Shown here: positions 3,110-45,360 of the stretch, piece after piece
How positions within the stretch are numbered: position 1 is the first letter of the stretch
How the letters are laid out: each line of letters begins with the position of its first letter
DNA from: Thermodesulfobacteriota bacterium
GTDB lineage: Bacteria > Desulfobacterota > Desulfobulbia > Desulfobulbales > JBFMBH01
Assembly (NCBI GenBank): GCA_040755095.1
Contig: JBFMBH010000003.1
Span: forward strand, 20,143-84,142
Direction of reading: 5' to 3'
Length of the DNA stretch: 64,000 bases
Translations under genes and position numbers: made by a program
The notes under the pieces: model-generated
Told to the model about the DNA's origin: nothing
Database searches by the model: none
The model's input: only the letters and a program-made list of their open reading frames with translations

Positions 3110-3531
3110 CCTCCCTGACGCTGGCCCGGAGCTACCTAGTGAAGGCTACCAAGCGGCTCAAGATCCTGGATGTGCTCTTGGGGGAGGAGGCTTACTCCGA
3201 CGTGGTGCGGGAGGCCCAGGAGATTGTGGAGCTGGCTCAGAAGGCGATGCTGCGGCACCGGGGGATCGATCCGCCCAAGTGGCACGACGTGGGGCCGATC
3301 CTCCTGGAGCATGCGGACCGCTTCACGGACCTTCATCCCGACCAGCTGGCCCGCCTGGCCCGCATCTCCCGCTGGCTGCGCAAGGAGCGGGAGCTGTCCT
3401 TCTATGGAGATATCGATTTCCTGCCCACTGAGGCCTACAGCCTCGACGATGCCCAGCGCGCCATGGCCGATGCCCGGTTCACCGTCGCGATCGCCTCCGG
3501 CCTCATCCCTTCCCCCCCCTGTGCCAGTTAG
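3106..3531 (+). CDS. HEPN domain protein, putative toxin partner of the MNT
   Basis: 141-aa all-helical product. GTGA overlap with the MNT gene. KAMLRHRGIDPPKWHDV and RKERELSFYGD resemble HEPN (PF05168-type) partners of MNT genes. Confidence 0.72.
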   Translation: MTSLTLARSYLVKATKRLKILDVLLGEEAYSDVVREAQEIVELAQKAMLRHRGIDPPKWHDVGPILLEHADRFTDLHPDQLARLARISRWLRKERELSFYGDIDFLPTEAYSLDDAQRAMADARFTVAIASGLIPSPPCAS

Positions 3532-22731: not shown

Positions 22732-22797
22732 GGTCATGAAAATGCCTCAGTCGCTTCGAGGCGCTGCTGTGGGAGAAACCGTCAGCGAGGTGTGGCC

Positions 22798-23061
22798 ATG
22801 CAGACCATTCAGGAATTCGTTCCCGTGACCCAGGCCAAGACAAGGCTGTTGGACATGATCAGGGCGATTCGTGACTCCGACGACGCCATTGCCATCACCA
22901 GGAATGGGGTGCCAGCCGCGGTCTTGATCAGCATGGACAAGTTCGAGGGGCTCCTGGAAACCATCGAGATCCTGGCCGACGACCAGGCACGGGAAGAATT
23001 GCGGCGATCCCGCGAGGACGCTCGACAGGGGCGCCTCGTGGATATGGAGGATGTCCTCTGA
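22798..23061 (+). CDS. Phd/YefM family antitoxin
   Basis: VPVTQAKTRLLDMIRAI...AIAITRNGVPAAVLISMDKFEGLLETIEIL. Confidence 0.85.
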   Translation: MQTIQEFVPVTQAKTRLLDMIRAIRDSDDAIAITRNGVPAAVLISMDKFEGLLETIEILADDQAREELRRSREDARQGRLVDMEDVL

Positions 23062-23351
23062 TGCCCTATCGCGTCCGCCTTACGGAAACGGTCCGGGCAG
23101 CGGTCGCGCATTTTCATCCGGAGTTGAAGGAACTTACCAGGAGGGCACTGGCGGAGCTGGCCGAAAATCCTCTTCTCGGTAAGGAGCTGCAAGAGGAACT
23201 GGCAGGCTACTTTTCCTACCGGTTCAAAAGGTACCGGGTGATTTACACCGTGGATGACGGGGACGGAACCGTTGTCGTCCATCTGGTCTGGCATCGCCGA
23301 AACGTCTACGAACTCTTGGAGCGTATCGCCCGCCCCGAGGGGCGGACATGA
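23061..23351 (+). CDS. RelE/ParE family toxin
   Basis: 1-nt overlap (TGATG) with the antitoxin gene. 96 aa. YRFKRYRVIYTVDDGDGTVVVHLVWHRRNVY is typical of RelE/ParE. Confidence 0.8.
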   Translation: MPYRVRLTETVRAAVAHFHPELKELTRRALAELAENPLLGKELQEELAGYFSYRFKRYRVIYTVDDGDGTVVVHLVWHRRNVYELLERIARPEGRT

Positions 23352-25988: not shown

Positions 25989-26191
25989 CCCCGGCGCCGC
26001 GGCCCGTTGCCAGCGGCCACGGCATGTGAAGAGGCCCGGCCAGCTGGGGTTCAAAATGGGAAAAAAATTCAAACGGATAGCTCACAAGAGCTGCCTTGAC
26101 ACCGGTCGGGGAAAGCTGCTAGCGTAGGAAAAATGACGACCAAGAGGCCATCGAGGACGGATCCCAGCCAACGCGCCACCTCGGATCGTCG

Positions 26192-27022
26192 ATGCCCAGA
26201 CCCGCATCTTCCCCGGCCGCCGCCTCTGCTGGCCAGCGCCGGATTGTTTTTGCCAATCGCAAGGGAGGCAGCGGCAAGACCGCAACCGCGGTCAACGTGG
26301 CTGCTGGCCTGTCCCGGCTGGGCCACCGGGTGCTCCTGGTGGATTGCGATCCCCAGGCCCACGCCAGCCTGTCCCTGGGCTGGTCTCCCTTCGGCCGCCA
26401 TCCCACCCTCTACGATCTTCTGACCGATCCGGACCTGCCCCTGGCGCAGGTGCTGAAGCCCTCGGCCGAGGCGCCCCAGCATCTGGTCATCCTGCCCGCC
26501 TCCAGCCAGCTGGCCGGGCTGGAGGTGGAAGGCGGCTCGGCGCCGGAGTGGCGCTCCCGCCTCGCCACGCTGCTCATGGCCAGCCGCGAGACCGCCGCTT
26601 TCGACTATCTCCTGCTGGACGTGCCGCCTACGGTGGGGCTGTTCACGATCATGGCCATGCTGGTGGCCCGGGAGGCGGTGATTCCGGTCCAGGCCCATTT
26701 TCTGGCCCTGGAGGGCCTGGCGGAGATGGTGCGCTTCGTCTACCAGATCAACGCCAGCGTCAATCCGGACCTCGTCATCTCCGGTATCCTACCTACCTTC
26801 TATGTGGGCAGCACCCGGCTGGCCCGCAAGGTGGTAGCCGAGCTGAAGGCCAACTTCGGCTCCGGACTGGTGATGCCCGCCATCCACCAGAACGTGCAGC
26901 TGGCCGAGGCACCCAGCTTCGGCCAGTCCATCTTCCGCTATGCCCCCCGCTCGGCCGGTGCCCGGGACTACCAGGCGGCGGTGAGCTGGCTGGCGACCGG
27001 GCCGGGCCGGAGGCCGGCATGA
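26192..27022 (+). CDS. ParA/MinD-family ATPase heading the chemosensory operon
   Basis: Deviant Walker A NRKGGSGKTATAVN, LLVDCDPQAHAS and LLLDVPP. Confidence 0.85.
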   Translation: MPRPASSPAAASAGQRRIVFANRKGGSGKTATAVNVAAGLSRLGHRVLLVDCDPQAHASLSLGWSPFGRHPTLYDLLTDPDLPLAQVLKPSAEAPQHLVILPASSQLAGLEVEGGSAPEWRSRLATLLMASRETAAFDYLLLDVPPTVGLFTIMAMLVAREAVIPVQAHFLALEGLAEMVRFVYQINASVNPDLVISGILPTFYVGSTRLARKVVAELKANFGSGLVMPAIHQNVQLAEAPSFGQSIFRYAPRSAGARDYQAAVSWLATGPGRRPA

Positions 27023-27402
27023 AGGGCGCCGGCGGCCAGCAACCCCGGGGGGGAGAGCGCCGGGGGGATGCCCTGGGCGTCAGCCTCGCGGAGCTGTTGC
27101 GGCAGAAGCATGCCGGCCCGTTGCCCGGGCAGGAGGAGCCGGCCGCTCGCTTTCTGGCCGCCGGGATCGAATCGCTGCGTGTCGCTGATCCCTTTGCCGC
27201 CTTGAAGCCCCTGTTTGCGGCCCTGGCCCTGGATCCCGGCCTGGCCAAGGCGGCCAACAACCTGGCCGTGGCCTTCTGGCAGCTGGGCTGTCCGGATCTG
27301 GCCCGGACCTGCGCCCGGGAGGCCCTGCGTATCGATCCCGACAACCGGCGGGCCAAGGCGCATCTGGCCTTTCTGACTGCAGAGGATGCGGCCGATGACT
27401 GA
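27019..27402 (+). CDS. TPR-like helical protein
   Basis: ATGA overlap with the parA-like stop. AANNLAVAFWQLGCPDLARTCAREALRIDPDNRRAKAHL is a TPR-type repeat. Confidence 0.45.
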   Translation: MKGAGGQQPRGGERRGDALGVSLAELLRQKHAGPLPGQEEPAARFLAAGIESLRVADPFAALKPLFAALALDPGLAKAANNLAVAFWQLGCPDLARTCAREALRIDPDNRRAKAHLAFLTAEDAADD

Positions 27403-28882
27403 GCAGGAGGCGACCCCGATCATCGGCATCGATCTGGGCACCACCAACAGCCTGGTGGCGGTGCCCAGCCGCCAGGGGCCGGTGATCGTCGCCAATGAGC
27501 GGGGTGAGCGCATGACGCCGTCGGTGGTGGCGGTGCACCCCGGTCAGGTCCTGGTGGGGGAGCTGGCTCGCTCCCAGGCGGTACTCAACCACGCGGTCAC
27601 CGTCACCCTGGCCAAGCGCGCCATGGGCAGCCGGCAGATCTGGCGGCTCCAGGATGAGGACTGGACGCCGGAGCGGGTCTCGGCCGCCATTCTGACCTCC
27701 CTGCGCCGCACCGCCGAGGACTATCTCGGCGTACCGGTGCGCGAGGCGGTGATCACCGTGCCGGCCTATTTCAACGACCGGCAGCGGCAGGCCACCTTGC
27801 AAGCCGGCGAGGCGGCAGGCCTTACGGTGGTGAAGCTCATGAACGAGCCCACCGCCGCGGCCCTGATGTATGGCCTGGAGCACGGTGCGGATGACCGGCT
27901 TCTGGTCTTCGACCTGGGCGGTGGCACCCTGGACATCACCCTGATCGAGATCCGGGAACACGCCTTCGTCGTCCGCCAGGTGGGCGGGGCCACCGACCTG
28001 GGGGGCAGCGACTTCGACGCCCTGCTGGTGGAGGAGCTGCGCGAGGTCTTCCGGCAGGAGCATGGCCTCGATCTGGCTGCCGATCCGGTGGCTCGCCAGC
28101 AACTGGTCCTGCAGGCGGAGCGGGCGAAGCGGGATCTGTCCTCCGCGCTGGAGGCCCGGGTGATGATCCCCTACGTGACCATCACTCCCGCGGGCCCGCT
28201 GCACCTCGATCTGCCCCTGACCCGGGCCCGGGCCGAGCTGCTGTTCACCCCGCTGCTGGACCGGATACGCGCCATCCTCGCCGAAACCCTGGCTGCCGCC
28301 GGGGTGGCCGCCGGCTGGGTCAACACCGTGATCATGGTGGGCGGGGCCAGCCGGATGCCCTGCGTGCGCCGGCTGCTGACCGAGCTCCTGCCGCCTGCGG
28401 TGACGGTGCGCCAGGACCTCAATCCCGAGGAGATCGTCGCCCTGGGGGCCGGACTTCTGGCCGGGGTGCTGGCTGGCACCTACCCGGAGATCCCTTTCCG
28501 GGACGTCACCGCCCATGATCTGGGCATCGAGGACGATGCCGGCGAGCTGGTGACCCTGATCCCCCGAGGCACCGCCTACCCGGTGGAGCGGCTGCGGGTC
28601 TTCACCACCACCCGCGACCACGAGACCGCGGTCACCATCCATGTCCTGGAGCGGGGCGAGCCCGGTGCCGAGCCGGTCACCCTGGCCTGGTTCGGCCTGG
28701 AGAGCCTGCCGCCCGCCCAGGCCGGCACCCTGGACATCGGTGTCACCTTTGCGATCGACGGGCACGGCATCCTGCGGGTGCGGGCCGTGGAGGAGACAAG
28801 CGGCGTCCGGGCCGAGATCCAGGTCAGCCGCTACGGAGCAGGACGAGCGTACGAGGAGCGCGAGATGATGCAGGAGGCGTGA
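27386..28882 (+). CDS. Hsp70-family ATPase lacking the C-terminal helical lid
   Basis: [30 protein letters not shown] and MVGGASRMP, plus a beta-sandwich segment, ending at 498 aa. The start may instead be ATG 27395, which has an AGAGGA Shine-Dalgarno sequence. Confidence 0.85.
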
Positions 28883-31197
28883 AGGCCGGGTGCACCCAGA
28901 AGGGGCAGCCTTTTCATCACAGAAGATGCGATCCGCAAGAGGGAGGGATGACAGCGATGGCGAGGAAGCTTGCACGGCCGGCAGGAAGGACAGGCATTCG
29001 GGTCAAGGCGGAGGGGGACGACATGCTGGTGAAGAAGGAGCACCAGGACAAGCGGGTGGCCCAGGAGAAGGTGCGGGCCCGCACCCTGGCCAAGCAGCAG
29101 GCCAATGCCGAGCGTCTGGCCGCCGCCTCGGAGGAGCTGTCGGCGGCCATCGAGGAGTCCAACGCCGCGTCGGCGCAGCTCAATGATCTCATGGGCGGGG
29201 TCGCGGCGGCGGCGGAGAAGATGAACCAGATCGCCACCCATCTCCAGGAGGCGGCCCAGACCACCAGCCGGTCGGTGGGGGAGGTGCGGACGATCACCGA
29301 GCAGTACGACGCCAAGAACGAGGATGTGGACAAGAAGACGGTGGACACCACCCGGGCCATCTCCGAGCTGGCCGGCTCGGTGGACGCCACCACCAAGCGG
29401 GTGCTGGACTCCGCCACGGTCATCAACCAGCTCAAGACCAAGGCGGAGAACATCAGCGGCATCGTCCAGGTGGTGACCCGGATTGCCGACCAGACCAATC
29501 TTCTGGCCCTGAACGCGGCCATCGAGGCGGCCCGGGCCGGGGATCACGGCAAGGGCTTTGCCGTGGTGGCCGACGAGGTGCGGACCCTGGCCGAGGTTTC
29601 GGAGAGCTCGGCCCACAAGATCAAGGATGTCATTGACGACGCCCTCAATCAGGTGGCCCGGGTGGTCTCTTCGGTCTCGGCCTTCGAGAGCATCTCGGCC
29701 ACCAACAAGCGCAAGACCGGGGTGATCGCCGGCGCCTGCAACAACATCCGCCACCAGTCCTCCCAGATCACGGCCGCGGTGCGTCAGATCAAGCAGATTT
29801 CCATCCAGGTCGCGGAGCGGGCCGATCAGACCTGCGGCAATGTCAGCACCATGGTGGGCGCCGCGGAGCAGATCGCCGCCTCCTGCGACCAGATCCGCCA
29901 GAGCACCAGCGAGCAGGTGAAGGCCTTCTCCGAGGCGTCGGCGGCCGCCAACGATCTGGCCACCATGGCCGATGACCTCAAGAGCTCGGTGGACATCAGC
30001 AAGTCCGCCGAGGAGGTGGCCGCCGCCGCCGAGGAGCTGGCCGCCACCGTGGAGGAGATGGACAACTCCGCCGATGAGATCGAGCGGGCCATCAGCGAGG
30101 TGGCCAAGGGCTCCCGGTCCATGGCCGACACCCTGGGCGAGGTGAGCGGCCTGGCCAACACCACCCTCGCTGATCTGGCGGCAGGGGATGCCATCTGGGA
30201 GGAGATCGCCGGCAAGGGGCGGGGCATCCAGCAGGAGCTGGAGCACATCAAATGTCTCGACCATCTCCTTTATATCGAGGCCCTGGAGAAGGCCATCACC
30301 GACAACACCCCCTTCAAGGGCCAGCTCGATCCCCACAAGTGCGCCTTTGGCTGCTGGTACGACCATTACCAGCCGGAGGACGGGGAGGAGCAGCTGGCCT
30401 ACGACGAGATCCGGGAGCATCATGACGCCGTGCACCACGGCGCCCGGGATGTGGTCCGGGCCATGGCCGACGGCCGTCTGGACGAATGCCGCGCCATCCT
30501 CGACTCGAAGATCCGGCCGGCGGTGGAGCAGTTCCGCCGCATCTTCGAGCGCTTCCACCACGGCATCGAGATGGTCACCGATGGCATCAAGAACACCATC
30601 AAGAACAACCAGGCGATCATGGAGGAGATGGCGGTCCTGGACAAGGAGTTCTCCAAGGTCAACAAGATCGTGGACACCATCACCAACGTCGCCATCCAGA
30701 CCAACATGCTGGCGGTGAACGGCCATATCGAGGCGGCCCGGGCCGGGGAGTTCGGCCGCGGCTTCTCGGTGGTGGCCGGCGACATCCGCTCCCTGGCCAA
30801 CGAGAGTGCGGACAACGCCGAGAAGATGCGGGAGATCCTGGACGATGTCCGGGACCAGATCGCCCTGGCCAAGGGGGACATCGCCAACATCAGCACCATG
30901 ATCCAGGTGCAGATCGAGCGGGCCAACGTGGCGGTGGAGGCCCTGGTGGAGATCTCCCGGCTGATCCGGGAAACCCGGGCCAGCCAGGGCTTGGCCCTCG
31001 TCCGCATGAAGGATGCCCACGCCGCGGCGGACAGCACCAACCGCCTGGTGGAGGACAGCGCCCAGGCGGTGGAGGTGCTGGTGCAAAACAGCGAGCAGTC
31101 CGGCCATGCGGCAGCCGAGCAGATCAAAGGCATCAAGGAGATTGCGCTCACCGCCGAGGACGTGGCCAGCCTGGCCGACGAGATGCAAAACGCCTAA
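28879..31197 (+). CDS. soluble methyl-accepting chemotaxis protein with two signalling-tip motifs flanking a CZB zinc-binding domain
   Basis: No TM segment. Tip 1 is [38 protein letters not shown]. The CZB-like domain reads DHLLYIE...[11 protein letters not shown]...HHDAVHH. Tip 2 is [37 protein letters not shown]. Start is uncertain: GTG 28879 (GTGA overlap), ATG 28948 or ATG 28957. Confidence 0.85.
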
Positions 31198-31222
31198 AGG
31201 GTCGACCGCTTGAGGTGCCGAT

Positions 31223-32842
31223 ATGGCTGAGACCAGCGTGCAAGCTGCCGGCGCGGGCGAATCCCAGCTCGTCTGTTTCCGGCTGGCGGAAGAGGAGTTC
31301 GGGGTGGACATCACCCAGGTCCGGGAGATCGTGCGGCTTCCGGCCATCACCCACATCCCCCTCACGCCGGACTATGTCCGGGGGGTGGCCAACCTGCGGG
31401 GCGCGGTGCTGCCGGTCATCGACTGCCGCCGCCGTTTCGGCTTGCCGGTGATGCCGGCCACGGAGCGGACCCGGGTTCTGGTCCTGGACGTGTCCGGGAT
31501 GATCGCCGGCATGGTGGTGGACGGGGTAAGTGAGGTGATGCGGGTCCCGCAGGGCGCCGTGGACCCGCCGCCGCCGGCCACCCAGGGCGGTATCACCGGC
31601 GACTTCCTGGCCGGGGTCATCAAACTGGACACCGGCCGCCGGCTGGTGCTCCTGATCCGGCCCGAAGAGGTGCTGGCTGTGGAGGCCGGTACCGCGGAGG
31701 GGACGGCCAGCCGCCCGGCGGCCCTGGCCCATGGCAGCGGCCGGCCGGCGGCGGCCACCGCCAAGGTGGCGGAGCGGCAGCTGGTCTCTTTTGCCGTCGC
31801 CGACGAGGAGTATGCCTTTGACATCGGGGTGGTGAAGGAGATCCTGCGCCACGGGGAGATCACCGCCCTGCCCGGGGCGCCGCCGGCGGTCCGGGGCCTG
31901 GTGACAGTCCGGGAGCAGCTCCTGCCGATCCTGGACCTGCGGATCCTCCTGGGCCTGGCTCCGGCGGACGGGGACGAGCAGCGGATCCTGGTGGTGGAGG
32001 GCGATGGCCCATCCATGGGCCTCATGGTGGACCGGGTGAAAGAGGTCCTGCGGGTGCCCTTGGACGAGATCCAGGCCGTGGACGATCTGGCCATGCGCAC
32101 CAGCGAGCTGGACGCCGTGGCCCGCCTCGACGACGGCCGCCGTCTCATCCTCATCCTCGATGTCAACCGGCTGGCGGGCATCGAGGCAGTCGGCGAGCTG
32201 ATGGAGGACACGGCGCCGGCCGCCGGGGAGACCGCAGGCCCCACCAGAGGGGCGGATCTGTCCGAGGAGCAGCTGGTCACCTTCGTGGTGGGTGGCGAGG
32301 AGTACGGCATCCGCATCACCCAGATCCGGGAGATCAACCGCCTGGGTCAGGTGACCCGGCTGCCCAAGGCGCCCGCCTTTCTGGCCGGGGTCACCAACCT
32401 CCGGGGGCAGGTCATCCCGCTCATCGACCTGCGGACCTGGTTCGATCTCGCGGACCGCAGCGTCAGCGACCGGACCCGGATCATCATTGTGGACCTGGAC
32501 GGCCAGCGCACGGGCTTCATCGTCGACCAGGTCAACGAGGTGCTGCGCATCCCCGGCGCCCAGATCGAGGCGACGCCGGCCCTCCTGGAGACCCGGGTGG
32601 ACCGGGAGCAGCGAGCCTTCATCACCGGCATCGGCAAGCTCGATGCCGGCAAGCGCATGGTCCTCATCCTGGATGTCAGCCGCATGCTGACCGCCGGCGA
32701 GCAGCAGGCCCTGGCAGCCCTGTCCGCGGCCAGCAGCGCGGCGCCGGCCTCCCCGATGACCGCCAAGCCGAAGCCGGCCCGCAAAAGCGGCGCCAAGAAG
32801 ACCAGGGCCAGGGCCGAGGACGCCATGGCCATCGACGACTGA
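31223..32842 (+). CDS. triple CheW-domain scaffold protein
   Basis: Three CheW modules: QLVCFRLAEEEFGVDITQVREIV, QLVSFAVADEEYAFDIGVVKEIL and QLVTFVVGGEEYGIRITQIREIN. A Ser/Ala/Lys-rich tail follows. Confidence 0.85.
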   Translation: MAETSVQAAGAGESQLVCFRLAEEEFGVDITQVREIVRLPAITHIPLTPDYVRGVANLRGAVLPVIDCRRRFGLPVMPATERTRVLVLDVSGMIAGMVVDGVSEVMRVPQGAVDPPPPATQGGITGDFLAGVIKLDTGRRLVLLIRPEEVLAVEAGTAEGTASRPAALAHGSGRPAAATAKVAERQLVSFAVADEEYAFDIGVVKEILRHGEITALPGAPPAVRGLVTVREQLLPILDLRILLGLAPADGDEQRILVVEGDGPSMGLMVDRVKEVLRVPLDEIQAVDDLAMRTSELDAVARLDDGRRLILILDVNRLAGIEAVGELMEDTAPAAGETAGPTRGADLSEEQLVTFVVGGEEYGIRITQIREINRLGQVTRLPKAPAFLAGVTNLRGQVIPLIDLRTWFDLADRSVSDRTRIIIVDLDGQRTGFIVDQVNEVLRIPGAQIEATPALLETRVDREQRAFITGIGKLDAGKRMVLILDVSRMLTAGEQQALAALSAASSAAPASPMTAKPKPARKSGAKKTRARAEDAMAIDD

Positions 32843-32968
32843 CCGCAGCAGCCCTGGTCGCTCCACAGGTCTTCCAGGTCCCACAGGTCGTCCCAGGGGC
32901 CGCATGAGGCCGGAACGCCGGGACCGAACGGGCCTGCAGCCTTTGCGACACACCCTGAGGAGACAAAC

Positions 32969-34063
32969 ATGCCAGCCCAGATCCGGGTTCTCATCGCCGA
33001 CGACTCCGCGCTCATGCGGCGCGTGTTGCGGGAGATCCTGGAGACCGATCCCAGGGTGGAGGTGGTGGGCGCGGCCCGGGACGGGGTGGACCTTCTGGAC
33101 AAGGCCGCCCGTCTGAAGCCGGATGTCATCACCCTGGACATCAACATGCCCAACATGGACGGCCTTACCGCCCTGGGGCACCTGGTGCGGGACGGGCTGG
33201 GACAGGTGGTCATGGTGTCGTCCCTGACCCAGGCCGGGGCCGAGGCGACCTTGAAGGCCCTGGAGATGGGCGCCTTCGACTGCGTGGCCAAGCCGGGGGG
33301 CACGGTCTCCGCCAACCTGACGGTGGTGAGCGACGAGCTGTTGCGCAAGGTGCGGGCCGCGGCCAGCGCCGGCACGGTGGTGCGCCTGGCCCGACCGCGC
33401 AAGCGGCCTGGCCTGGCAGCAGAGCCCGTCCGGCCGGCCGCGCCCGTGCCCCAGCGCAGCCGGCCAGCGCCGTCCGTGCCGCCGGTGGGCCACAAGGCGG
33501 TCGCCATCGGCATCTCCACCGGCGGGCCGAAGACGATCCTGGATGTGCTGCCGGCCCTGCCCGCCGATCTGCCGGCCGCGGTGTTCATGGTCCAGCACCT
33601 GCCGCCCAGCTTCACCGCCTCCTACGCCGAGCGCCTGGATCGCTGCTGCCGGATGCGCTGCCTGGAGGCGCAAAGCGGCATGGTGGTCCAGCCCGGCACC
33701 ATCTACCTGGGCCAGGGCGGCCGCCATCTCACCGTGGCCCGCCGGACCACCGGCGAGGTGGTGATCCGCACCCCCTCCCGGCCGGAGCATGCCTTCATGC
33801 CCTCGGTGGACGTGATGATGGAGTCGATTCTCGGGGTCTACGGCCAGGACACCGTGGGGGTGCTCATGACCGGCATGGGCGATGACGGGGCGAAGGCCAT
33901 GGCCGCCATCCACCAGGCGGCGGGCGTCACCATTGCGGAAAGCGAGGAGAGCGCCGTGGTCTGGGGGATGCCCGGCGCGGCAGTGGCCCTCAATGCCGTC
34001 CAGCTCCTGGCCGGCAGCTGGGAGATGGCCCGTGAGATCATCAAAGCGGTGCAGGGCCGGTGA
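32969..34063 (+). CDS. cheB: chemotaxis response regulator protein-glutamate methylesterase
   Basis: Receiver domain (RVLIADDSALMRR...DVITLDINMPNMDG) plus a CheB esterase domain (GISTGGP, VQHLPP, TGMGDDGA). Confidence 0.95.
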   Translation: MPAQIRVLIADDSALMRRVLREILETDPRVEVVGAARDGVDLLDKAARLKPDVITLDINMPNMDGLTALGHLVRDGLGQVVMVSSLTQAGAEATLKALEMGAFDCVAKPGGTVSANLTVVSDELLRKVRAAASAGTVVRLARPRKRPGLAAEPVRPAAPVPQRSRPAPSVPPVGHKAVAIGISTGGPKTILDVLPALPADLPAAVFMVQHLPPSFTASYAERLDRCCRMRCLEAQSGMVVQPGTIYLGQGGRHLTVARRTTGEVVIRTPSRPEHAFMPSVDVMMESILGVYGQDTVGVLMTGMGDDGAKAMAAIHQAAGVTIAESEESAVVWGMPGAAVALNAVQLLAGSWEMAREIIKAVQGR

Positions 34064-34098
34064 TGCTGGACCCGGCTCTGGCATGCGCCTGACCAGTT

Positions 34099-34938
34099 AT
34101 GCGACTCGATCTGGCGGATTTCCTCAAGATCCGGGACCTGATCCATGCCCAGACCGGGATCGCCTTTGACGAGAACAAGCTCCTCTTCGTCAAAAAGCGG
34201 CTGCAGATCCGCATGGAGGCCTGTCGCACGGAGACCGCCCTGGAGTATCTGCGCCTGCTCAAGTTCGGCGATCCCCGGGGGGAGGAGCTGCAGGCCTTCA
34301 TCAACCTGCTCACGACCAACGAGACGTATTTCTTCCGGGAGTTCAATCAGCTGGTGGTGTTCGCCGAGCAGTGCCTGCCGGAGCTGGCCGCCCGGCGGGC
34401 CTCCATGAAGAACCGCCGCCTGCGGCTGTGGTCGGCGGGCTGCTCCACCGGCGAGGAGCCATACACCCTGGCCATCATCCTGCGGGAGATGCTGGAGGAG
34501 CCGGACAGCTGGCTGCTCGATGTCCTGGCCACGGACATCGACACCCGGGTGCTGAACACCGCCCGCAAGGGCCTCTATGACCGGCGGGCGGTGAAGGAGA
34601 TGCCGCCGGAGTACCTGGACCAGTGGCTGACCCGCACCAGGACCGGCCAGTACCGGGTGCACCCGATCCTGCGCCACATGTGCCGTTTCGAGCACCTCAA
34701 TATGCACCAGGACAGCCAGATGGCCCGGGTGGTGAATGTGGACTTCATCTTCTGCCGCAACGTCCTGATCTACTTCGATGACCTGGCACGGCAGAAGGTG
34801 GTGGCCCACTTCTTCGAGAGCCTCAATCCGGGCGGCTACATCTTTCTGGGCCATTCGGAATCCATGAGCCGGATCTCCAACGCCTTCAGGGCGATCCGCC
34901 GGGGCGGCATGATTCTGTATCAGAAGCCCTGGCTCTAG
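34099..34938 (+). CDS. cheR: chemotaxis protein methyltransferase
   Basis: TTNETYFFRE, LRLWSAGCSTGEEPYTLAI and IFCRNVLIYFD. Confidence 0.92.
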   Translation: MRLDLADFLKIRDLIHAQTGIAFDENKLLFVKKRLQIRMEACRTETALEYLRLLKFGDPRGEELQAFINLLTTNETYFFREFNQLVVFAEQCLPELAARRASMKNRRLRLWSAGCSTGEEPYTLAIILREMLEEPDSWLLDVLATDIDTRVLNTARKGLYDRRAVKEMPPEYLDQWLTRTRTGQYRVHPILRHMCRFEHLNMHQDSQMARVVNVDFIFCRNVLIYFDDLARQKVVAHFFESLNPGGYIFLGHSESMSRISNAFRAIRRGGMILYQKPWL

Positions 34939-34978
34939 ACGGCTGGCGGCAGCCTACGGGCGAGACAACAGGACAACC

Positions 34979-37534
34979 ATGGCCGAGACGATCACCATCA
35001 GCTTGCAGGCCAGCGAGCTGGATCTCCTCAGGGAGTTCCTCCTGGAGGGCCAGGACCTCCTGGCCCAGGTGGAGGACGAGATCCTGCGTCTGGAAGACGG
35101 AGACGCGGGCCAGGATGCCCTGGTCCAGGGGATCTTCCGCAGCGTGCACACCATCAAAGGCACCTCCGGCTTTTTTGGCCTGGCGGCGGCCGAGCGCCTC
35201 GGCCACCGGCTGGAGGCGCTCCTGGACCTGGTCCGGGGGCACCGGGTGCAGGTGACCCCGGACGTGGCGGACTGCCTCCTGGGCGGGGTGGATCGTCTGA
35301 AGAAGCTCCTGGCCGAGGCGGCATCGGCGGCCAGCCAGGCCCGGGAGGAGGGCGGCAACGCCGTCCTGGCCATGACCGATCTGGCGGTGCAAGACGTCCT
35401 GGACTGGCTGGAGGGCGAGATCGACAAGGGCAAGGCGGCAGCGCCGGCGGCCCCGGCCGCCGTTGTTGCCGCTCCGGCCGTCGCGGCTTCCGGCGAGCCC
35501 TTCCCGGAGCTGCCCGCCGAGCTGCTTGCCGAGTTTCTGGCCGAGGCCAACGGGCACCTGGAGGCCATGGAGGGCCTGTTGAAGGCCGCTCAGGCCGGCA
35601 GCATGGCCGATGACGGGCCGGATGCCATCTTCCGCTACCTGCACACAGTGAAGGGCAACAGCGGCATGGTGCTGGCCCACTTCGACCGGGAGAGCGACCG
35701 GGAGCGGCACGTTCTGGCCGGGGCTCGGGACTTGGCCCACGCGGCCGAGCATCTGGTGCAGCAGCGCCGGGCCACCGCCAGCCGCCTTTCGCCCAGCGAG
35801 GTGGAGATCCTCTTCCAGGTCCGGGACACCCTGGTCCAGCTCCTGGAGCGCCTGGCGGCCGGCGATGCCATCGGGTTCCCGGTCCGGGAGCTGGTGGAGC
35901 ACTGCCGGGCCGCGGCCGAAGGCCGGGCGCCGGCCGGATCCTCGGCCACGGGCTCGCCTTTGGGCCGGCTGTTGACCAGGCTGGAGCATGACCTGGCCGG
36001 CATGCTCACCGTCACGGATCGGGAACAGGCCCTGGCCCGGATCCGCGAAACCCTGCAAGACATCGCTGGTGTGGCCATGAGCACCGGCGACCGGGACCTC
36101 AAGAAGAAGATCGGCGAGGCCCTCACCGTGGCCGAGTTTCTGTGCCAGGACAGCAGCGAGGAGAGTATGCGCCTCTGCCTGCCGGATCTGGTGGCCTTCA
36201 GCCAGGAGGTGCGCCAGGCCGTGCCTCGTCTGGCAGCGGTGACCGTCGCGCCGGCGCCGGCACTGGCACCGGCCCAGGGCCGCCCGGCCGCCACCCCGGA
36301 AGCAGCCACCGCCGGCGAGCGGGAGCAGGCAGCGGTGATCCGGGTGCCTTCCGAGCGCCTGGACCAGCTCATGAACCTGGTGGGCGAGCTTCTCGTGGGC
36401 CGCAATGCCTTGGCCTACCTGGCCCGCTCCATCGCGGTCGACGATGGCCGGCCAGATATCGGCCAGAAGGTCAAGGAGCATTGTGTTGGGCTTTCCCATA
36501 TCGGCGAGGAGCTGCAGGCGGCGGTCATGGCCATGCGCATGACCCCGGTCCAGCATGTCTTTGCCCGATTTCCTCGCCTGGTGCGGGACCTGTCCCGCCG
36601 GCTGGGCAAGGCCATGCGTCTCGAGGTCTCGGGCGGCGAGACCGAGCTGGACAAGACGGTCATCGAGGCCCTGGGCGACCCCCTGGTGCACCTCATCCGC
36701 AACGCCGCTGACCACGGCCTGGAGCCGACCGAGGCGCGGATCGCGGCCGGCAAGCCGGCCGAGGGGGTCATCCGCCTCCATGCCGCCCAACGGGGCCAAT
36801 CGGTGCTGGTCCAGATCACGGACGACGGCCGGGGGCTCAACAGCGCCGCCATCCGCAAGAAGGCCCTGGCCAACGGCCTCTATGACCAGACCCAACTGGA
36901 GCGCATGAGCGAGGACGAGCTGGCCAACCTGATCTTTGCCCCAGGCCTGTCCACCGCTGGCTCGGTCTCGGAGGTCTCGGGCCGGGGGGTGGGCATGGAC
37001 GTGGTGCGCCGGGGCATCGAGCGGATCGGCGGCAGCGTCCAGGTGGCAAGTCGGCCCGGCCTGGGCTGCACCATCACCATGCGGCTGCCGCTCACCCTGA
37101 CCGTCAGCCGGGGTCTTGAGGTGGCCGTGGCGGGCGAGCGCTTCTACCTGCCCCTCGATGTCATCGTCGAGACCGTGAAGGTGGACCGGGAGCGCTTCCA
37201 CCGGCACCGCCGGGAGACGATGGTGGCCATCCGGGGCGACATCCTGGTGGTGCACGACCTGGCAGCCCTCTTGGACCTGCCGGCGGCGGAGCGGGGAGCC
37301 CTGCCGGCCCAGGTGCCGCTGGTCATCATCCGGGCGGGCGACCGGCGGGAGGCCGTCCGGGTGGACGAATTCTTCCGGGAGGGGGAGTTTGTCCTGAAGC
37401 CCCTGCCCAAGGCCCTGGGCCGGATGCCCTGGATCATGGGCAGCACCATCACCCCCACCGGTCAGGTGATCCTGATTCTCGACGCCGCCAAGCTCTTGAC
37501 CAGCCCGAGCACCCCCCCTGGAGCGCCCGCATGA
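34979..37534 (+). CDS. cheA: CheA histidine kinase with two Hpt (P1) domains
   Basis: Hpt 1 is FRSVHTIKGTSGFFG and Hpt 2 is FRYLHTVKGNSGMV. Kinase core has DPLVHLIRNAADHG, DDGRGL and GRGVGMDVV. C-terminal CheW-like P5 domain. Confidence 0.9.
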   Translation: MAETITISLQASELDLLREFLLEGQDLLAQVEDEILRLEDGDAGQDALVQGIFRSVHTIKGTSGFFGLAAAERLGHRLEALLDLVRGHRVQVTPDVADCLLGGVDRLKKLLAEAASAASQAREEGGNAVLAMTDLAVQDVLDWLEGEIDKGKAAAPAAPAAVVAAPAVAASGEPFPELPAELLAEFLAEANGHLEAMEGLLKAAQAGSMADDGPDAIFRYLHTVKGNSGMVLAHFDRESDRERHVLAGARDLAHAAEHLVQQRRATASRLSPSEVEILFQVRDTLVQLLERLAAGDAIGFPVRELVEHCRAAAEGRAPAGSSATGSPLGRLLTRLEHDLAGMLTVTDREQALARIRETLQDIAGVAMSTGDRDLKKKIGEALTVAEFLCQDSSEESMRLCLPDLVAFSQEVRQAVPRLAAVTVAPAPALAPAQGRPAATPEAATAGEREQAAVIRVPSERLDQLMNLVGELLVGRNALAYLARSIAVDDGRPDIGQKVKEHCVGLSHIGEELQAAVMAMRMTPVQHVFARFPRLVRDLSRRLGKAMRLEVSGGETELDKTVIEALGDPLVHLIRNAADHGLEPTEARIAAGKPAEGVIRLHAAQRGQSVLVQITDDGRGLNSAAIRKKALANGLYDQTQLERMSEDELANLIFAPGLSTAGSVSEVSGRGVGMDVVRRGIERIGGSVQVASRPGLGCTITMRLPLTLTVSRGLEVAVAGERFYLPLDVIVETVKVDRERFHRHRRETMVAIRGDILVVHDLAALLDLPAAERGALPAQVPLVIIRAGDRREAVRVDEFFREGEFVLKPLPKALGRMPWIMGSTITPTGQVILILDAAKLLTSPSTPPGAPA

Positions 37535-37965
37535 GCCCGCAACAGACCCATGTCCTCATCGTCGACGACGAGCCCGACATCCTCGATGCCCTCCGCTGCT
37601 ATCTGGAGGTGGCGGGCGACTACCGGATCAGCACCGAGAGCGATCCGCTGCGGGCCCTGGAGCTCCTGGGCCGGGAGCGGGTGGACGTGGTGCTCTCGGA
37701 CATCAATATGCCGGGCATGAGCGGTATCGAGCTGTTGCGCCGGATCAAGACCGAGCAGCCCCTGCTGCAGGTGGTCATGATGACCGCCTTCTCCACGGTG
37801 GACAAGGTCATGGAATGCGTGCAGGCCGGTGCCGCCGACTACATCCTGAAGCCGTTGACCGACATGGAGGCGGCAGCACAGATCATCGACGAGGCGGCCA
37901 GAAGGGTGCAGCGCTGGCGCCGCACCTTTCTGGCCACCATGCGTAGTGGGCGGGGGGCAGACTGA
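37531..37965 (+). CDS. cheY: CheY-like single-domain response regulator
   Basis: VLIVDDEPD...DVVLSDINMPGMSGIELL...TAFS...DYILKP. ATGA overlap with cheA. Confidence 0.85.
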   Translation: MSPQQTHVLIVDDEPDILDALRCYLEVAGDYRISTESDPLRALELLGRERVDVVLSDINMPGMSGIELLRRIKTEQPLLQVVMMTAFSTVDKVMECVQAGAADYILKPLTDMEAAAQIIDEAARRVQRWRRTFLATMRSGRGAD

Positions 37966-38381
37966 TGGACCAGGGAACGTGCCGGATCATGGTGGTGGAT
38001 GACGAGCCGGAGGTCAGCCAGAGCCTGGCCTCCACCTTGAGCTTGCTCACCGGCCAGGCGGTGGAGCCGTACGAGGATCCGTATCTGGCCCTGCAGGCCT
38101 TTCTGAAGATGCCCTACGATCTGGTGATCACGGACATCAGCATGCCGCGCATTGACGGCTACGAGCTCATCCGTCGCATGCGCGCCCTGATGCCGGCCTG
38201 CGATTTCATCGTCGTCACCGCCCACCGGAACGCGGAGACGGTGCAGCGGGCCCGGGTGGCGGGTGCGGCGCGCCTGTTCTTCAAGCCGGTGGATGTGGCG
38301 GCCCTGGAGGCCGCGGTGGGTGAGACCATGGCGCGGCATGACTACTGGGCCAGGCTTCTGGCCTCGGTAACCGGGGGGTGA
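37965..38381 (+). CDS. second single-domain response regulator
   Basis: IMVVDDEPE...DLVITDISMPRIDGYELI...VTAH...FFKP. TGATG overlap with the preceding gene. Confidence 0.8.
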   Translation: MDQGTCRIMVVDDEPEVSQSLASTLSLLTGQAVEPYEDPYLALQAFLKMPYDLVITDISMPRIDGYELIRRMRALMPACDFIVVTAHRNAETVQRARVAGAARLFFKPVDVAALEAAVGETMARHDYWARLLASVTGG

Positions 38382-38385
38382 CGCC

Positions 38386-40551
38386 ATGCCTGCCTCGATC
38401 AGTGCCGATCTCACCGCCGATTTCATCCAGGAGGGGCTGACCCTGGTGGATGACGCCCTGGAGCTGGTGCAGCCGGATGGCTGTCCGGCCGCCTCGGTGA
38501 ACGGTCTCTTCCGTTGCCTGCACACCCTCAAGGGTACCAGCGCCATCCTGGAGCTGGTGGCCCTGTCCGAGTTCGTCCACCGCTTCGAGGACTTTGTTCG
38601 CGATCGCCAGGGAAAGGGGGAGGGCCTGACCCCGGCCGAGGCGGAGGTGACCCGGCAGGGCCTGTTTCTGCTCCAGGAGGCGGTGGGGGCGGCCGGCACC
38701 GAGCCGCTCATGGTGGAGAGGCCGCCCTTCCGGGACTTCCTGCAGGCCCTGCAGCAGCTCAAGGTGGAGCAGGCCAGCATGGCCTGCCTGGACGGCCTGC
38801 TCGGCCAGCTGCGGCAGAGTCTGGCCGCGGTGTCCGGGGTGGGAGCCCAGGCCAGTCTGCTGGTCCCGATCATCGAGGCCACGGAGGCGGCCCTGGGCAA
38901 GATCCGGAGCACCCGGGCCCGGGTGGTGCTGCCGGTGGATCACCTGGCGGTGGAGGCGGTGACCCTGGCGGGCGAGGACGTCACCGCCCTGGTCTGCCGG
39001 CAGCTGGCCGCCCTGGAGCAGGTGGCCCAGCACGGCAAGACCGCCTTCGCCAGTCTCGATGTGCACGCCCTCAACGGCGATGTCGCCGGTCTCAAGGCCC
39101 TCCTGGCCGAGGGCGATTTCCTCCTGGACTGGGACGTCATCCTGGACCTGTGTGACATCTCGCCGGAGGTGGTCAGCGAGGCGGTGAAGCGGCTGTGGGA
39201 GGAAGGGGTGCTGCGGGAGGGCCAGGTGACCATGCGGTCCGGGACCCTGGTCGCCCAGGCGGCGGCCGGGCCGGCTGCGCCGGCCGAGATGTCGCCGGCC
39301 GAGGCCGGGGGTGCCCTCCCGGCCGCCGAGCCGGCCGGCGGCCGCGGCGAGCACGATCCGGAGTTCTTCCGGGTCTCGGGACGGATTCTCGACGAGATCG
39401 CGGCCGGAGTCGGCTCCCTGGTCGCGGACCGCAACGCCCTGGAGAACCTGGTCAGCGAGCTGGGCAGCCTGATCCCGCCCCGCTACCGGCGCCTGCTCCA
39501 GGACAGCTCCGGCGACCTGGACCGCCACGTCAACAGCCTGGAGCGACGGGTGACCAGCCTCACCAGCCGGCGCCTCAGCGAGCTTTACCAGCGGCTACCC
39601 GCCCTCATCAAACAGTTGTCCGAGGCCTGCGGCAAATCAGTGCTCCTCGAGACCACCGGCGGTGAGATCGAGGTGCCCCGCTCCTTCCTGAAGATCCTGG
39701 GCGACCCCCTGGTGCATCTGGTGCGCAACGCCGTGGACCACGGCTTCGAGTCCCCCAGGGATCGGCTGGCCGCCGGCAAGGACCAGCAGGGTCTTTTGGC
39801 GATCTGGGCCCGGCGGGAGGATGAGCGGCTGATCCTGACCGTGGCGGACGACGGCCGGGGTCTGGACTGCGCCGCCATCCGGCGGAAGGCCGTGGAGCGG
39901 GGGCTGATCCCGGCGGCCGCCGACCTGGACGATGCCGCCATCCGAGCCCTCATCTTCGCCCCGGGCTTCTCCACGGCCGAGGCCGTGACCAAGGTCTCCG
40001 GCCGGGGCGTGGGCATGGACGTGGTGCGGGCGGCCATCGAGGGCAGCGGCGGCCGGATCCAGATCGAGTCCGAGCCGGGGCGGGGCACCACCTTCGAGCT
40101 GGTGGTGCCGGTCATCTCCGGCAACCGGACCCGGGACATCCTGCTGGTGCAGGTGGGCAGCCAGGTCTTTGGCGTCGATTACCGCTGCCTGGTGGAGGTG
40201 CTGGATGCCAGCCAGCGCGTCCTGCACGGCCATCGGGACCGGCGCTTCTTCGCCTGGCGCGGCCAGCTGCTGCCCTTTGTCGACCTGGCGGTGCACCTGG
40301 GCGAGGTGGCGGCCGGCGGCGGTGGCGACGGACTGGCCGCCATCCGCATCCTGGTGGTGGAGGATGAATACGGTCGTCGCCTGGCCTGCGGGGTGCAAGG
40401 GATCCAGCACAAGGTCAAGGTGGTGGTGACCCCCTTCGGCCACGGCCTGTTGAAGGCCCATCCCATCCTGAGCGGCACCGCGGTGGTCGGCACCGGCGAG
40501 CCCCGCCTGGTGCTGGAGTTCCGGGATGTGTCCCTCTTCCTCGCCCCCTAG
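38386..40551 (+). CDS. second complete CheA-type histidine kinase
   Basis: Hpt is FRCLHTLKGTSAIL. Kinase core has DPLVHLVRNAVDHG, DDGRGLD and GRGVGMDVV. C-terminal CheW-like domain. Confidence 0.85.
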   Translation: MPASISADLTADFIQEGLTLVDDALELVQPDGCPAASVNGLFRCLHTLKGTSAILELVALSEFVHRFEDFVRDRQGKGEGLTPAEAEVTRQGLFLLQEAVGAAGTEPLMVERPPFRDFLQALQQLKVEQASMACLDGLLGQLRQSLAAVSGVGAQASLLVPIIEATEAALGKIRSTRARVVLPVDHLAVEAVTLAGEDVTALVCRQLAALEQVAQHGKTAFASLDVHALNGDVAGLKALLAEGDFLLDWDVILDLCDISPEVVSEAVKRLWEEGVLREGQVTMRSGTLVAQAAAGPAAPAEMSPAEAGGALPAAEPAGGRGEHDPEFFRVSGRILDEIAAGVGSLVADRNALENLVSELGSLIPPRYRRLLQDSSGDLDRHVNSLERRVTSLTSRRLSELYQRLPALIKQLSEACGKSVLLETTGGEIEVPRSFLKILGDPLVHLVRNAVDHGFESPRDRLAAGKDQQGLLAIWARREDERLILTVADDGRGLDCAAIRRKAVERGLIPAAADLDDAAIRALIFAPGFSTAEAVTKVSGRGVGMDVVRAAIEGSGGRIQIESEPGRGTTFELVVPVISGNRTRDILLVQVGSQVFGVDYRCLVEVLDASQRVLHGHRDRRFFAWRGQLLPFVDLAVHLGEVAAGGGGDGLAAIRILVVEDEYGRRLACGVQGIQHKVKVVVTPFGHGLLKAHPILSGTAVVGTGEPRLVLEFRDVSLFLAP

Positions 40552-40563
40552 TGCCCGCCCGCC

Positions 40564-44034
<3,471 letters not shown>

Positions 44035-44039
44035 CCTCC

Positions 44040-45266
44040 ATGTCTCTTGAGCAGGAAAAGCCTCGAATCCTGATCGTCGATGATGTGCCCGAGAACGTCC
44101 ACGTGCTGGCCCGGGCGCTCCGGGATCGCTACCACCTGTCGGCGGCCACCGGGGGTCAGGAGGCCCTGGCGCTGGCAGCCGGCGACAACCGTCCGGACCT
44201 GATCCTTCTCGATATCATCATGCCGGACATGGACGGCTACGAGGTCTGCCGGCGTCTCAAGGCCGCCGAAGCGATTCGGGATATCCCGGTCATCTTCGTC
44301 ACCGGGCTGGGGGATGGGGAGGACGAATCCTATGGCCTGGAGCTGGGGGCGGTGGATTACATCACCAAGCCCATCAACCTGTCGGTGCTGCGGGCCCGGG
44401 TGAGCACCCAGCTGGCCCTCCAGGCCCAGCGCCGGGAGCTGGCCCAGGCCAACTGGCAGCTGCGGCAGGAGATGGAGGAGCGCCGGCGGCTGGAGCAGCA
44501 GCTGGCGGTCCAGCGGGAGCGGGAGGCCCGCCAGGCGGCGATGATCCATTCCGGTCGCCTGGCGGCCCTGGGTGAGATGGCCGCCTCCATGGCCCACGAG
44601 ATCGGCCAGCCCCTGTCGGTGATGAGCCTTACCGTCCAGACGTGGGCCTTGTTGCACCAGCGGGGCCGGCTGACCCTGGAGCAGGTGATGGCCGAGCTGC
44701 CCAAGCTCATCGGCAGTCTCAAGCGGGTGGATGGCCTCATCGAGCATGTACGGACCTTCGGCCGCAAGGCCGGGGAGCCTGCCGACGTGAGCCTGACTGC
44801 GGTGGCCCTGGACGCCGTTGGCCTGTGCCGGCACCAGTTCAAGACCCACGGCATCGTTCTCGCCGAGCACCTGCCGGAGGAGGTGCCGCCGGTGCGGGCG
44901 GTGGCGGCGGAGCTCGAGCAGGTGGTGCTCAATCTCCTGTCCAACGCCCGGCACGCGGTGGAGGATCGCCGGGACCGGGAAGGCACCAGCCCGTGGGTAG
45001 AGATCCGGGTGGAGCCGGCCGCGGACCGGGTTTCCCTATTCGTGGCCGACAACGGTGGCGGGGTGCCGGAGGACAAGGCCGAGCTGATCTTCGACCCGTT
45101 CTTCACCACCAAGCCTTCCTCCCAGGGTACCGGGCTGGGCCTGGCCATCAGCATGCAGGTGATGGAGAAGTTCGGCGGGCTGGTGCTGCACAACCGGCCC
45201 GGGGAGGGCGCCACCTTCGAGCTCTGGGTGCGGCGGACGGGCAACGCTCCGGAGGCTGCTGGCTGA
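44040..45266 (+). CDS. receiver-histidine kinase fusion (REC-HisKA-HATPase)
   Basis: ILIVDDVPEN...DLILLDIIMPDMDG, then GEMAASMAHEIGQPL and GTGLGLAIS. An alternative TTG start at 44031 would overlap the upstream stop. Confidence 0.85.
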   Translation: MSLEQEKPRILIVDDVPENVHVLARALRDRYHLSAATGGQEALALAAGDNRPDLILLDIIMPDMDGYEVCRRLKAAEAIRDIPVIFVTGLGDGEDESYGLELGAVDYITKPINLSVLRARVSTQLALQAQRRELAQANWQLRQEMEERRRLEQQLAVQREREARQAAMIHSGRLAALGEMAASMAHEIGQPLSVMSLTVQTWALLHQRGRLTLEQVMAELPKLIGSLKRVDGLIEHVRTFGRKAGEPADVSLTAVALDAVGLCRHQFKTHGIVLAEHLPEEVPPVRAVAAELEQVVLNLLSNARHAVEDRRDREGTSPWVEIRVEPAADRVSLFVADNGGGVPEDKAELIFDPFFTTKPSSQGTGLGLAISMQVMEKFGGLVLHNRPGEGATFELWVRRTGNAPEAAG

Positions 45267-45360
45267 AGGCCTGCGGCCGGAGCCGGGAAGGGCGGGAAAA
45301 AAGGGCGGGCGGCCCGCATCCGGACCGCCCGCGTGGAAAAACGTAGCGTGCTGCGCGGCC

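Follow-up and report, generated by a model that had tools for sequence, protein, structure and literature searches.

A stretch of 64,000 nt from a Thermodesulfobacteriota bacterium (contig JBFMBH010000003.1) was analysed over its full length and is referred to below as the window. It carries a chemosensory (che) operon, the head of which is formed by three genes, called here the trio: parA, a gene for a 127-aa tetratricopeptide repeat (TPR) protein (the adaptor), and hsp70. Starts and stops overlap within the trio; the adaptor start overlaps the parA stop by ATGA, and the TPR gene and hsp70 (ATG 27395) share 8 nt. An initial annotation, made from the letters of the window, had listed these three open reading frames (ORFs), a ParA with RKGGSGKT, a 127-aa TPR-like protein joined by ATGA, an Hsp70 that ends before the helical lid, and a receptor, cheW3, cheB, cheR and cheA downstream. 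All of these were recovered: the reading frames by ORF listing and profile searches, ParA by translation and its AAA_31/CbiA matches, the adaptor by reading of the overlap and a TPR_1 match above cut-off, the absent lid by the extent of the Pfam match (to 514/599) and an AlphaFold2 (AF2) model, and the downstream genes by Pfam. The annotation had also put the locus forward as an undescribed system. This held for the trio, which was not found described in one literature collection, but not for the che part, which is of the known F9 class; the double signalling domain and the chemoreceptor zinc-binding (CZB) domain of the receptor had been missed. The new part is the trio, the che class being already known.

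The che system of the window is of the F9 class and not a new class. The assignment was made because signalling domains occur in tandem in the soluble receptor (DosM) and three CheW domains occur in the cheW3 product; these two features, a receptor of the DosM kind and a triple CheW, have been described as unique to F9 (PMC9321776, PMC7534058). In Vibrio cholerae, F9 forms purely cytoplasmic, two-layered (sandwich) arrays held by DosM (PMC7534058). Pfam MCPsignal was matched in two stretches of the window DosM, with hairpin tips at aa 182 and 584 (nt 29500-29541 and 30706-30747), and no transmembrane segment was found (maximum 19-residue Kyte-Doolittle hydropathy = 0.95). The CZB domain lies between the hairpins, at approximately nt 30262-30456. 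In a published F9 survey, CZB was present in only 2/78 DosM proteins (PMC9321776). Three DosM representatives of CZB-containing size (P0124-P0126, 744-747 aa) look like further CZB examples, and in locus L006 the CZB is located within the multi-CheW protein instead of DosM.

The receptor start was placed at ATG 28957, which has a GGGAGGG ribosome-binding site (RBS) 9 nt upstream; more than 40 orthologous receptors begin MA(K/R)KLxxP exactly at the equivalent residue. Starts at GTG 28879 and ATG 28948 were rejected on RBS spacing (too close for 28948) and orthologue N-termini. With the start at ATG 28957, 74 nt separate hsp70 from the receptor gene, and the GTGA overlap of the Hsp70 stop with the receptor start, which the initial annotation had considered possible, was wrong on the same two grounds. 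The N-termini of DosM proteins of the trio type are all MA(K/R)KLxxP...TG(I/L)xVK, and most other DosM representatives begin MALVK.

Signature motifs of Hsp70 are present in the third trio protein, including MVGGASRMP, and its Pfam HSP70 match stops at profile position 514/599. The AF2 model, built on the clade alignment, had a predicted local distance difference test (pLDDT) score of 89.2 and a predicted template modelling (pTM) score of 0.88, and comprised the nucleotide-binding domain (NBD) and the beta part of the substrate-binding domain (SBD-beta). After residue 479 only a 13-residue helix of low confidence follows (pLDDT ~35), and there is no helical lid (SBD-alpha). The model superposed on ATP-state, domain-docked DnaK (4b9q/5nro) at 1.9 A. 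When 5.8 billion proteins were searched with the Hsp70, the first block consisted of 34 clusters of 480-523 aa at 44-64% identity (100% for the window's own entry, P0001, which is held in the public collection as the 495-aa form); canonical DnaKs ranked after this block, at 41-48% identity and nearly all of at least 600 aa. In the alignment, the whole lidless clade (~480-530 aa) terminates at the start of the DnaK lid, and the catalytic residues (E. coli D8, K70, E171, D194, T199) are invariant. The window protein scored below both NCBIfam DnaK equivalogs (483.3 bits vs. cut-off 648; 474.8 vs. 822.55) and below HscA (359.6 vs. 620). No DnaJ or GrpE domain was found by Pfam in any called ORF of the window, and the earlier statement that no dnaJ or grpE gene is adjacent was thus upheld across all 64 kb. 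Judged from the alignment, the Hsp70 is a naturally occurring, conserved variant rather than a broken dnaK.

Substrate cleft positions were compared by alignment between the lidless clade (n = 34) and 84 canonical DnaKs. Three changes are fixed or nearly so in the clade: L397H (33/34), T403D (34/34) and I418Y (34/34). Arch position 404 is D/H/N in the clade vs. K/L/M in DnaKs, G405 is replaced by polar residues and A429 by V/T/I, and the interdomain linker VLLL of DnaK becomes an alternating hydrophobic-x-(F/L)-x. The clade still has the central hydrophobic pocket (I401/F426/V436/I438). Because the pocket was kept while the entrance was changed and then fixed, one dedicated ligand would be expected and not the range of a general chaperone; the alignment suggests that the Hsp70 has one dedicated client.

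The same cleft bears on a role of the Hsp70 as the sensory input of the array by chaperone titration, in which Hsp70 would occupy DosM in the resting state, and unfolded or competing proteins would pull it off and shift kinase output, with ParA and the adaptor only positioning the array. Precedents for such titration are BiP on Ire1 and DnaK on sigma-32. The role would fit the trio-type DosM of ~645 aa, which has no sensor domain, and the expectation that unknown sensory proteins feed F9 arrays (PMC9321776). F9 of V. cholerae is expressed under stress (PMC7534058), and genetic links between Hsp70-like proteins and chemosensory pathways are reported for M. xanthus StkA (PMC4319316) and Nostoc (PMC9239167). 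However, the fixed, clade-specific and partly acidic cleft points to one ligand and not to broad sampling of unfolded proteins, the window DosM already has a CZB sensor, and the Hsp70 occurs together with ParA and the adaptor, neither of which would be required by a pure sensor. Titration was rated as unlikely.

Conservation of the cassette was examined in the context of 7 Hsp70 and 2 ParA homologues (9 contigs). The order was ParA, a protein of 120-183 aa, an Hsp70 of ~500 aa, a DosM of ~645 aa and a multi-CheW protein; one contig ends at Hsp70. In contigs that extend far enough, genes for CheB, a HEAT protein, CheR, CheY and CheA share the cluster; most contigs have them after multi-CheW, and two have all except CheB upstream of parA. 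The clade linker motif D...H.LG(I/V/L)ED..G, written as a DNA pattern, was scanned against 185,579 species-representative genomes. The protein form of this pattern matches ~30/34 clade members (28 for a stricter form), and since some members are missed the carrier count is a lower bound. The scan matched 103 blocks, 52 of which encode a lidless Hsp70. DosM was directly downstream in 40/45 blocks with that side visible, and ParA was upstream in 31/33. By deposited names, the 52 carriers are 24 Firmicutes, 23 Desulfobacterota/'Deltaproteobacteria', 2 Spirochaetes and 3 Nitrospinota/Nitrospirae. Most of the Firmicutes are Syntrophomonadaceae, among them the cultured Syntrophomonas wolfei subsp. 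methylbutyratica. Across 20 complete loci, the pairwise identity matrices of ParA, Hsp70 and DosM are correlated (r = 0.82-0.94). An AAA ATPase gene is inserted after hsp70 in two Desulfobacterales loci. The Nitrospinota/Nitrospirae metagenome-assembled genomes (L023, L096, L103) hold a separate lidless Hsp70 subgroup of ~510-535 aa, with the same H.LG.ED motif and the ending ...KRRLLEEMRA. Many of the Desulfobacterota carriers are metagenome-assembled genomes with the isolate names nDJH, nJC1, nHGR and nTS, presumably bins from a study of magnetotactic bacteria; Ca. Magnetoglobus multicellularis and, likewise, Ca. Magnetomorum HK-1 are carriers too (L001, L027, L033, L034, L076, P0014 and P0280 for both sets together).

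The same neighbours in about 50 species of three phyla (Syntrophomonadaceae, Desulfobacterota, Spirochaetes) are beyond chance. A neighbourhood survey in relatives had been set beforehand as a test by the initial annotation, and the trio proved syntenic with this che class; the accompanying check for a truncated dnaK pseudogene likewise left the Hsp70 intact, as a member of a conserved clade of ~480-530 aa with invariant catalytic residues. A pseudogene or housekeeping DnaK was ruled out by clade conservation and synteny. An incidental adjacency, in which a decaying or housekeeping dnaK paralogue happens to lie beside the che operon, could draw on the 42-48% identity of the Hsp70 to canonical DnaK. 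It is contradicted by the synteny across three phyla, and further by a distinct clade of 34+ clusters of 480-530 aa in which the catalytic residues are invariant and the cleft changes fixed, by scores that fall short of the NCBIfam cut-offs for DnaK and HscA, and by the overlapping start and stop codons within the trio; incidental adjacency is barely credible.

Synteny bears in a different way on an Hsp70 that serves the array independently of ParA, as a dedicated assembly/disassembly chaperone of the DosM/CheW3 lattice. Such a chaperone would fold the double hairpin or break the lattice into inheritable units, much as Hsc70 uncoats clathrin. Intact ATPase residues, the presence of SBD-beta and the position of hsp70 immediately upstream of dosM are all compatible with it, and F9 arrays are extended lattices without membrane support (PMC7534058). 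Most F9 systems nevertheless assemble without a dedicated Hsp70, no J-domain partner is encoded nearby, and the close association of the Hsp70 with the adaptor and ParA is suggestive of a single functional module. A ParA-independent lattice chaperone was judged improbable. The alternatives were weighted in the order titratable sensor, lattice factor, incidental adjacency.

The first trio protein matched Pfam AAA_31 (E = 4e-38) and CbiA (E = 3e-20). Its deviant Walker A, RKGGSGKT, fits the family signature KGGxGK[ST], and the closest solved structure in a search of the Protein Data Bank (PDB) was the chromosomal Soj of Thermus thermophilus (1wcv, E = 5e-47). A ParA relative outside the trio, among the closest at 45% identity, was seen at the P0293 locus, in another che-like cluster, where cheA comes directly next and both adaptor and Hsp70 are absent; Hsp70 is therefore not a constant companion of the che-linked ParAs in this lineage.

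The adaptor matched Pfam TPR_1 at 28.8 bits (cut-off 27.8) over residues 76-109. Its AF2 model has five helices at residues 42-125 (pLDDT >93), corresponding to two TPRs and a cap; pLDDT is <50 at residues 1-21, a short helix at 23-29 lies over the N-terminal motif, and confidence is low at 33-38. By Foldseek, the TPR bundle superposed on the consensus TPR 1na3 with a root-mean-square deviation (rmsd) of 0.9 A, and the model also superposed on SGT (2vyi) and FKBP52 (1qz2). In the alignment across loci, a conserved motif lies in a basic N-terminus; a variable acidic or proline-rich linker follows, and then a conserved C-terminal domain. The motif (aa 1-40) has the form LxxLL(R/K)QK / LGxGLDxLL and is kept across phyla, as K(K/R)xLG(M/I/K)GLD(L/V)LL in Syntrophomonadaceae and as the weaker TL(E/Q)DLL(R/N)QK in Desulfobacterota; the window version is LGVSLAELLRQK. 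We take the LGxGLDxLL peptide to be a close likeness of the N-terminal peptide of chromosomal Spo0J/ParB that activates Soj. ParA partners generally act via a positively charged, disordered N-terminus (PMC10241942), and the conserved motif in the low-pLDDT region of the adaptor is consistent with this rule. The small protein looks like ParA's partner. No ParB gene for direct comparison was present in any fetched locus, and a literature search on the ParB motif strings returned nothing relevant. No CheW domain was found by Pfam or AF2 in the gene after parA, which encodes a TPR protein in place of an array-integration domain of the ParP type.

The TPR module of the adaptor also ends REC-NMT1_2 proteins of ~590-630 aa (L006 8066-9952; L007 4260-6029; L008 5453-7216). 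The gene for such a protein is upstream of parA in some Desulfobacterales, and in Desulfobulbia-type loci the fusion replaces the adaptor between parA and hsp70. As the module is common to the adaptor and the REC-NMT1_2 proteins, it behaves as a shared docking module. The initial annotation had paired the TPR protein with the Hsp70; the trio is better split as a ParA/adaptor pair plus Hsp70, given the ParB-like N-terminus and the occurrence of the TPR on REC-NMT1_2.

A published F9 survey of 72 species wrote Syntrophomonas wolfei and Syntrophothermus lipocalidus as [RYA...DosMW3BYXX] and the other 70 without those dots (PMC9321776). The three unnamed dots stand where the Syntrophomonadaceae loci examined here hold ParA, the adaptor and Hsp70. 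As dots occur in 2/72 species only, the trio is an accessory of one F9 subclade, and is unnamed in that survey. A full-text literature search combining Hsp70/DnaK with chemosensory, CheW, ParA, F9 or DosM (one collection covered) gave no description of the trio or of a che-operon Hsp70.

The coordinates of the operon are collected in Table 1. Thirteen co-directional genes extend from parA to the end of the REC-histidine kinase gene at 45266, with intergenic gaps of -8 to 126 nt; the cheW3 start is 25 nt past the end of dosM, and in the operon tail (38386..45266) the gaps are -4 to 12 nt. A sigma-70 promoter consensus scan returned no site, and the candidate upstream of parA was not recovered by it. 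A terminator scan of 26192-45266 found hairpins on the + strand to be no commoner than chance, which is compatible with a single operon and is not proof of one. A strong, GC-rich hairpin at 45305-45332 (12 pairs, 11 G-C), with its T-run on the minus strand, lies 39 nt past the last kinase gene; the operon may end here, or the hairpin may terminate a convergent transcript. Elsewhere in the window, a Phd/YefM-ParE toxin-antitoxin pair (22795-23351) lies just upstream of tkt, and a nucleotidyltransferase/HEPN pair (2603-3531) lies near the window start.

Table 1. Features of the che operon and of the gap that precedes it (positions in nt of the window).
Feature	Position	Strand	Basis or remark
tkt-parA gap, 203 nt	25989..26191	+	candidate promoter inside
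Candidate promoter: TTGACA, 18-nt spacer, TAGCGT	26096-26101 and 26120-26125	+	read by eye; suggestion only
parA, Soj-like ParA/MinD-family ATPase, 276 aa	26192..27022	+	Pfam, PDB match
Adaptor, 127 aa: disordered aa 1-40, two TPR + capping helix aa 42-125	27019..27402	+	Pfam, AF2, Foldseek
Lidless Hsp70, 495 aa, NBD + SBD-beta	27395..28882	+	alternative ATG 27386 = 498 aa
dosM, DosM-type soluble receptor, 746 aa	28957..31197	+	Pfam MCPsignal x2, CZB
cheW3, three CheW domains in a single protein	31223..32842	+	Pfam CheW, 3 stretches, E = 7e-111
cheB, REC + methylesterase	32969..34063	+	Pfam
cheR methyltransferase	34099..34938	+	Pfam
cheA: two Hpt stretches, dimerisation domain, HATPase_c, CheW-like domain	34979..37534	+	Pfam
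Two single-domain response regulators	37531-37965 and 37965-38381	+	Pfam
Second CheA-like kinase, dimerisation domain not detected	38386-40551	+	Pfam
Hybrid histidine kinase (HK), HAMP-PAS-HK-REC-Hpt	40564-44034	+	Pfam
REC-HK, last operon gene	44031-45266	+	Pfam

The trio is read here as a positioning and coupling module of the F9 array, composed of a ParA/adaptor pair plus a single-client Hsp70, and the probability of this reading was put at roughly 0.45. That ParA positions a cytoplasmic array, as the initial annotation proposed, is the natural reading by analogy, and we infer it for the window. The basic, disordered N-terminus of the adaptor, with its ParB-like motif, would contact and activate ParA, and the two-TPR domain would hold the cargo. 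ParA and the adaptor would together space and segregate the cytoplasmic array, a task that PpfA/TlpT and ParC/ParP perform for other arrays. In a less certain step, the Hsp70 would bind a specific basic array peptide, most likely the invariant DosM N-terminus (MAKKLxxP...TGIxVK); the partly acidic entrance of the cleft would suit a basic DosM peptide. The Hsp70 would then stand between the array and ParA/adaptor as an element for coupling or remodelling, regulated by ATP. A stronger form makes the Hsp70 a fixed subunit of the positioning machine, an ATP-driven clamp that ties the lattice, via the DosM N-peptide, to the ParA gradient through a ParB-mimicking TPR adaptor, with the same contact perhaps able to report the protein-folding state of the cell. 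It would amount to a ParA system of three components in which a chaperone couples the cargo; this form is possible but doubtful.

Several points weigh against the positioning and coupling module. We infer all of its protein-protein contacts, the binding of ParA to the nucleoid and the direction of action, and two peptides are candidates for the contact with ParA, the adaptor N-terminus or the DosM N-terminus. The N-terminal peptide of the adaptor gave no match in the PDB (as a single sequence or a 15-sequence profile) or in NCBIfam, and its likeness to ParB comes from inspection. The Hsp70 C-terminal tail, RRGxxLx(V/I)(L/I), is conserved in the Firmicutes and Spirochaete branch only and is variable or absent in Desulfobacterota; a universal dock of the TPR on the Hsp70 tail is unlikely on that ground and was ruled out. 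The co-divergence of ParA, Hsp70 and DosM can arise from shared descent alone. Two loci (L102, L057) are without ParA or adaptor, or are frame-shifted, and no che genes were seen around the Hsp70 of L023, L096 and L103 in the few kilobases visible. Lastly, 70 of the 72 surveyed F9 systems are without the trio.

The architecture of F9 arrays is solved, but their inputs and the mechanism of their placement are lacking, and F9 function is still unassigned in the literature (PMC7534058). A cassette tied to dosM supplies candidates for placement and possibly for input. If the positioning and coupling module is true, it would bring a novel type of partner into the ParA field, with a TPR domain that bears a ParB-like peptide, and would add a third ATPase where none was expected. 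An unusual case for the Hsp70 field is a bacterial Hsp70 that naturally lacks a lid, has a remodelled cleft and a constant genomic partner, and has no gene for a J-protein close by; it may be the second single-client Hsp70 after HscA. The idea can be tested, as Syntrophomonas wolfei is a cultured carrier and in vitro reconstitution of F9 arrays is said to be easy (PMC9321776).

Compared with cluster I of V. cholerae (DosM, CheW3, CheA1), the window has the same double-hairpin soluble receptor, the same triple CheW, and CheB/CheR/CheA/CheY in the cluster, and its DosM-W3-B-R-A order is that of published F9 systems. It differs from V. cholerae and 69 other surveyed species in the ParA/adaptor/Hsp70 genes upstream of dosM, from most F9 clusters in having no further gene between cheB and cheR (34063-34099), a place usually taken by an unnamed gene that codes for a HEAT-repeat protein in the fetched F9 loci, and from V. 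cholerae F9 in the CZB inside DosM and the three extra kinases at the operon end. PpfA/TlpT of Rhodobacter sphaeroides and ParC/ParP of Vibrio offer an analogy in that a ParA-family ATPase is encoded in a che operon and would act with a partner bearing a charged N-terminal contact peptide. In the window, however, the putative partner is a small TPR protein, neither a CheW-like ParP nor the receptor alone, and Hsp70 is a third component.

The nearest precedents are Hsp70-like proteins that have been linked genetically to chemosensory-type pathways: M. xanthus StkA/SglK (PMC4319316) and the Nostoc DnaK system with DnaK1 (PMC9239167) are alike to the window in having an Hsp70-family protein act with such a pathway. 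Going by the titles and abstracts, they differ in that they were found by genetics and in their outputs, type IV pili and polysaccharide, and neither a ParA nor a TPR adaptor is mentioned there. Eukaryotic TPR co-chaperones (Hop, SGT, FKBP52, Tom70/71) bind the C-terminal tails of Hsp70/Hsp90; the adaptor TPR superposes on such domains, and the Hsp70 tail of the Firmicutes branch is conserved, but the TPR match is generic and the tail is not EEVD and is unconserved in the window's own branch. HscA is the Fe-S cluster Hsp70 with the single client IscU; it keeps its lid and has the partner J-protein HscB. The window Hsp70 differs from it in having no lid, no J partner nearby and a score below the HscA cut-off, and would resemble it, by analogy, in being a bacterial Hsp70 specialised, as proposed here, through a substrate domain adapted to one client peptide.

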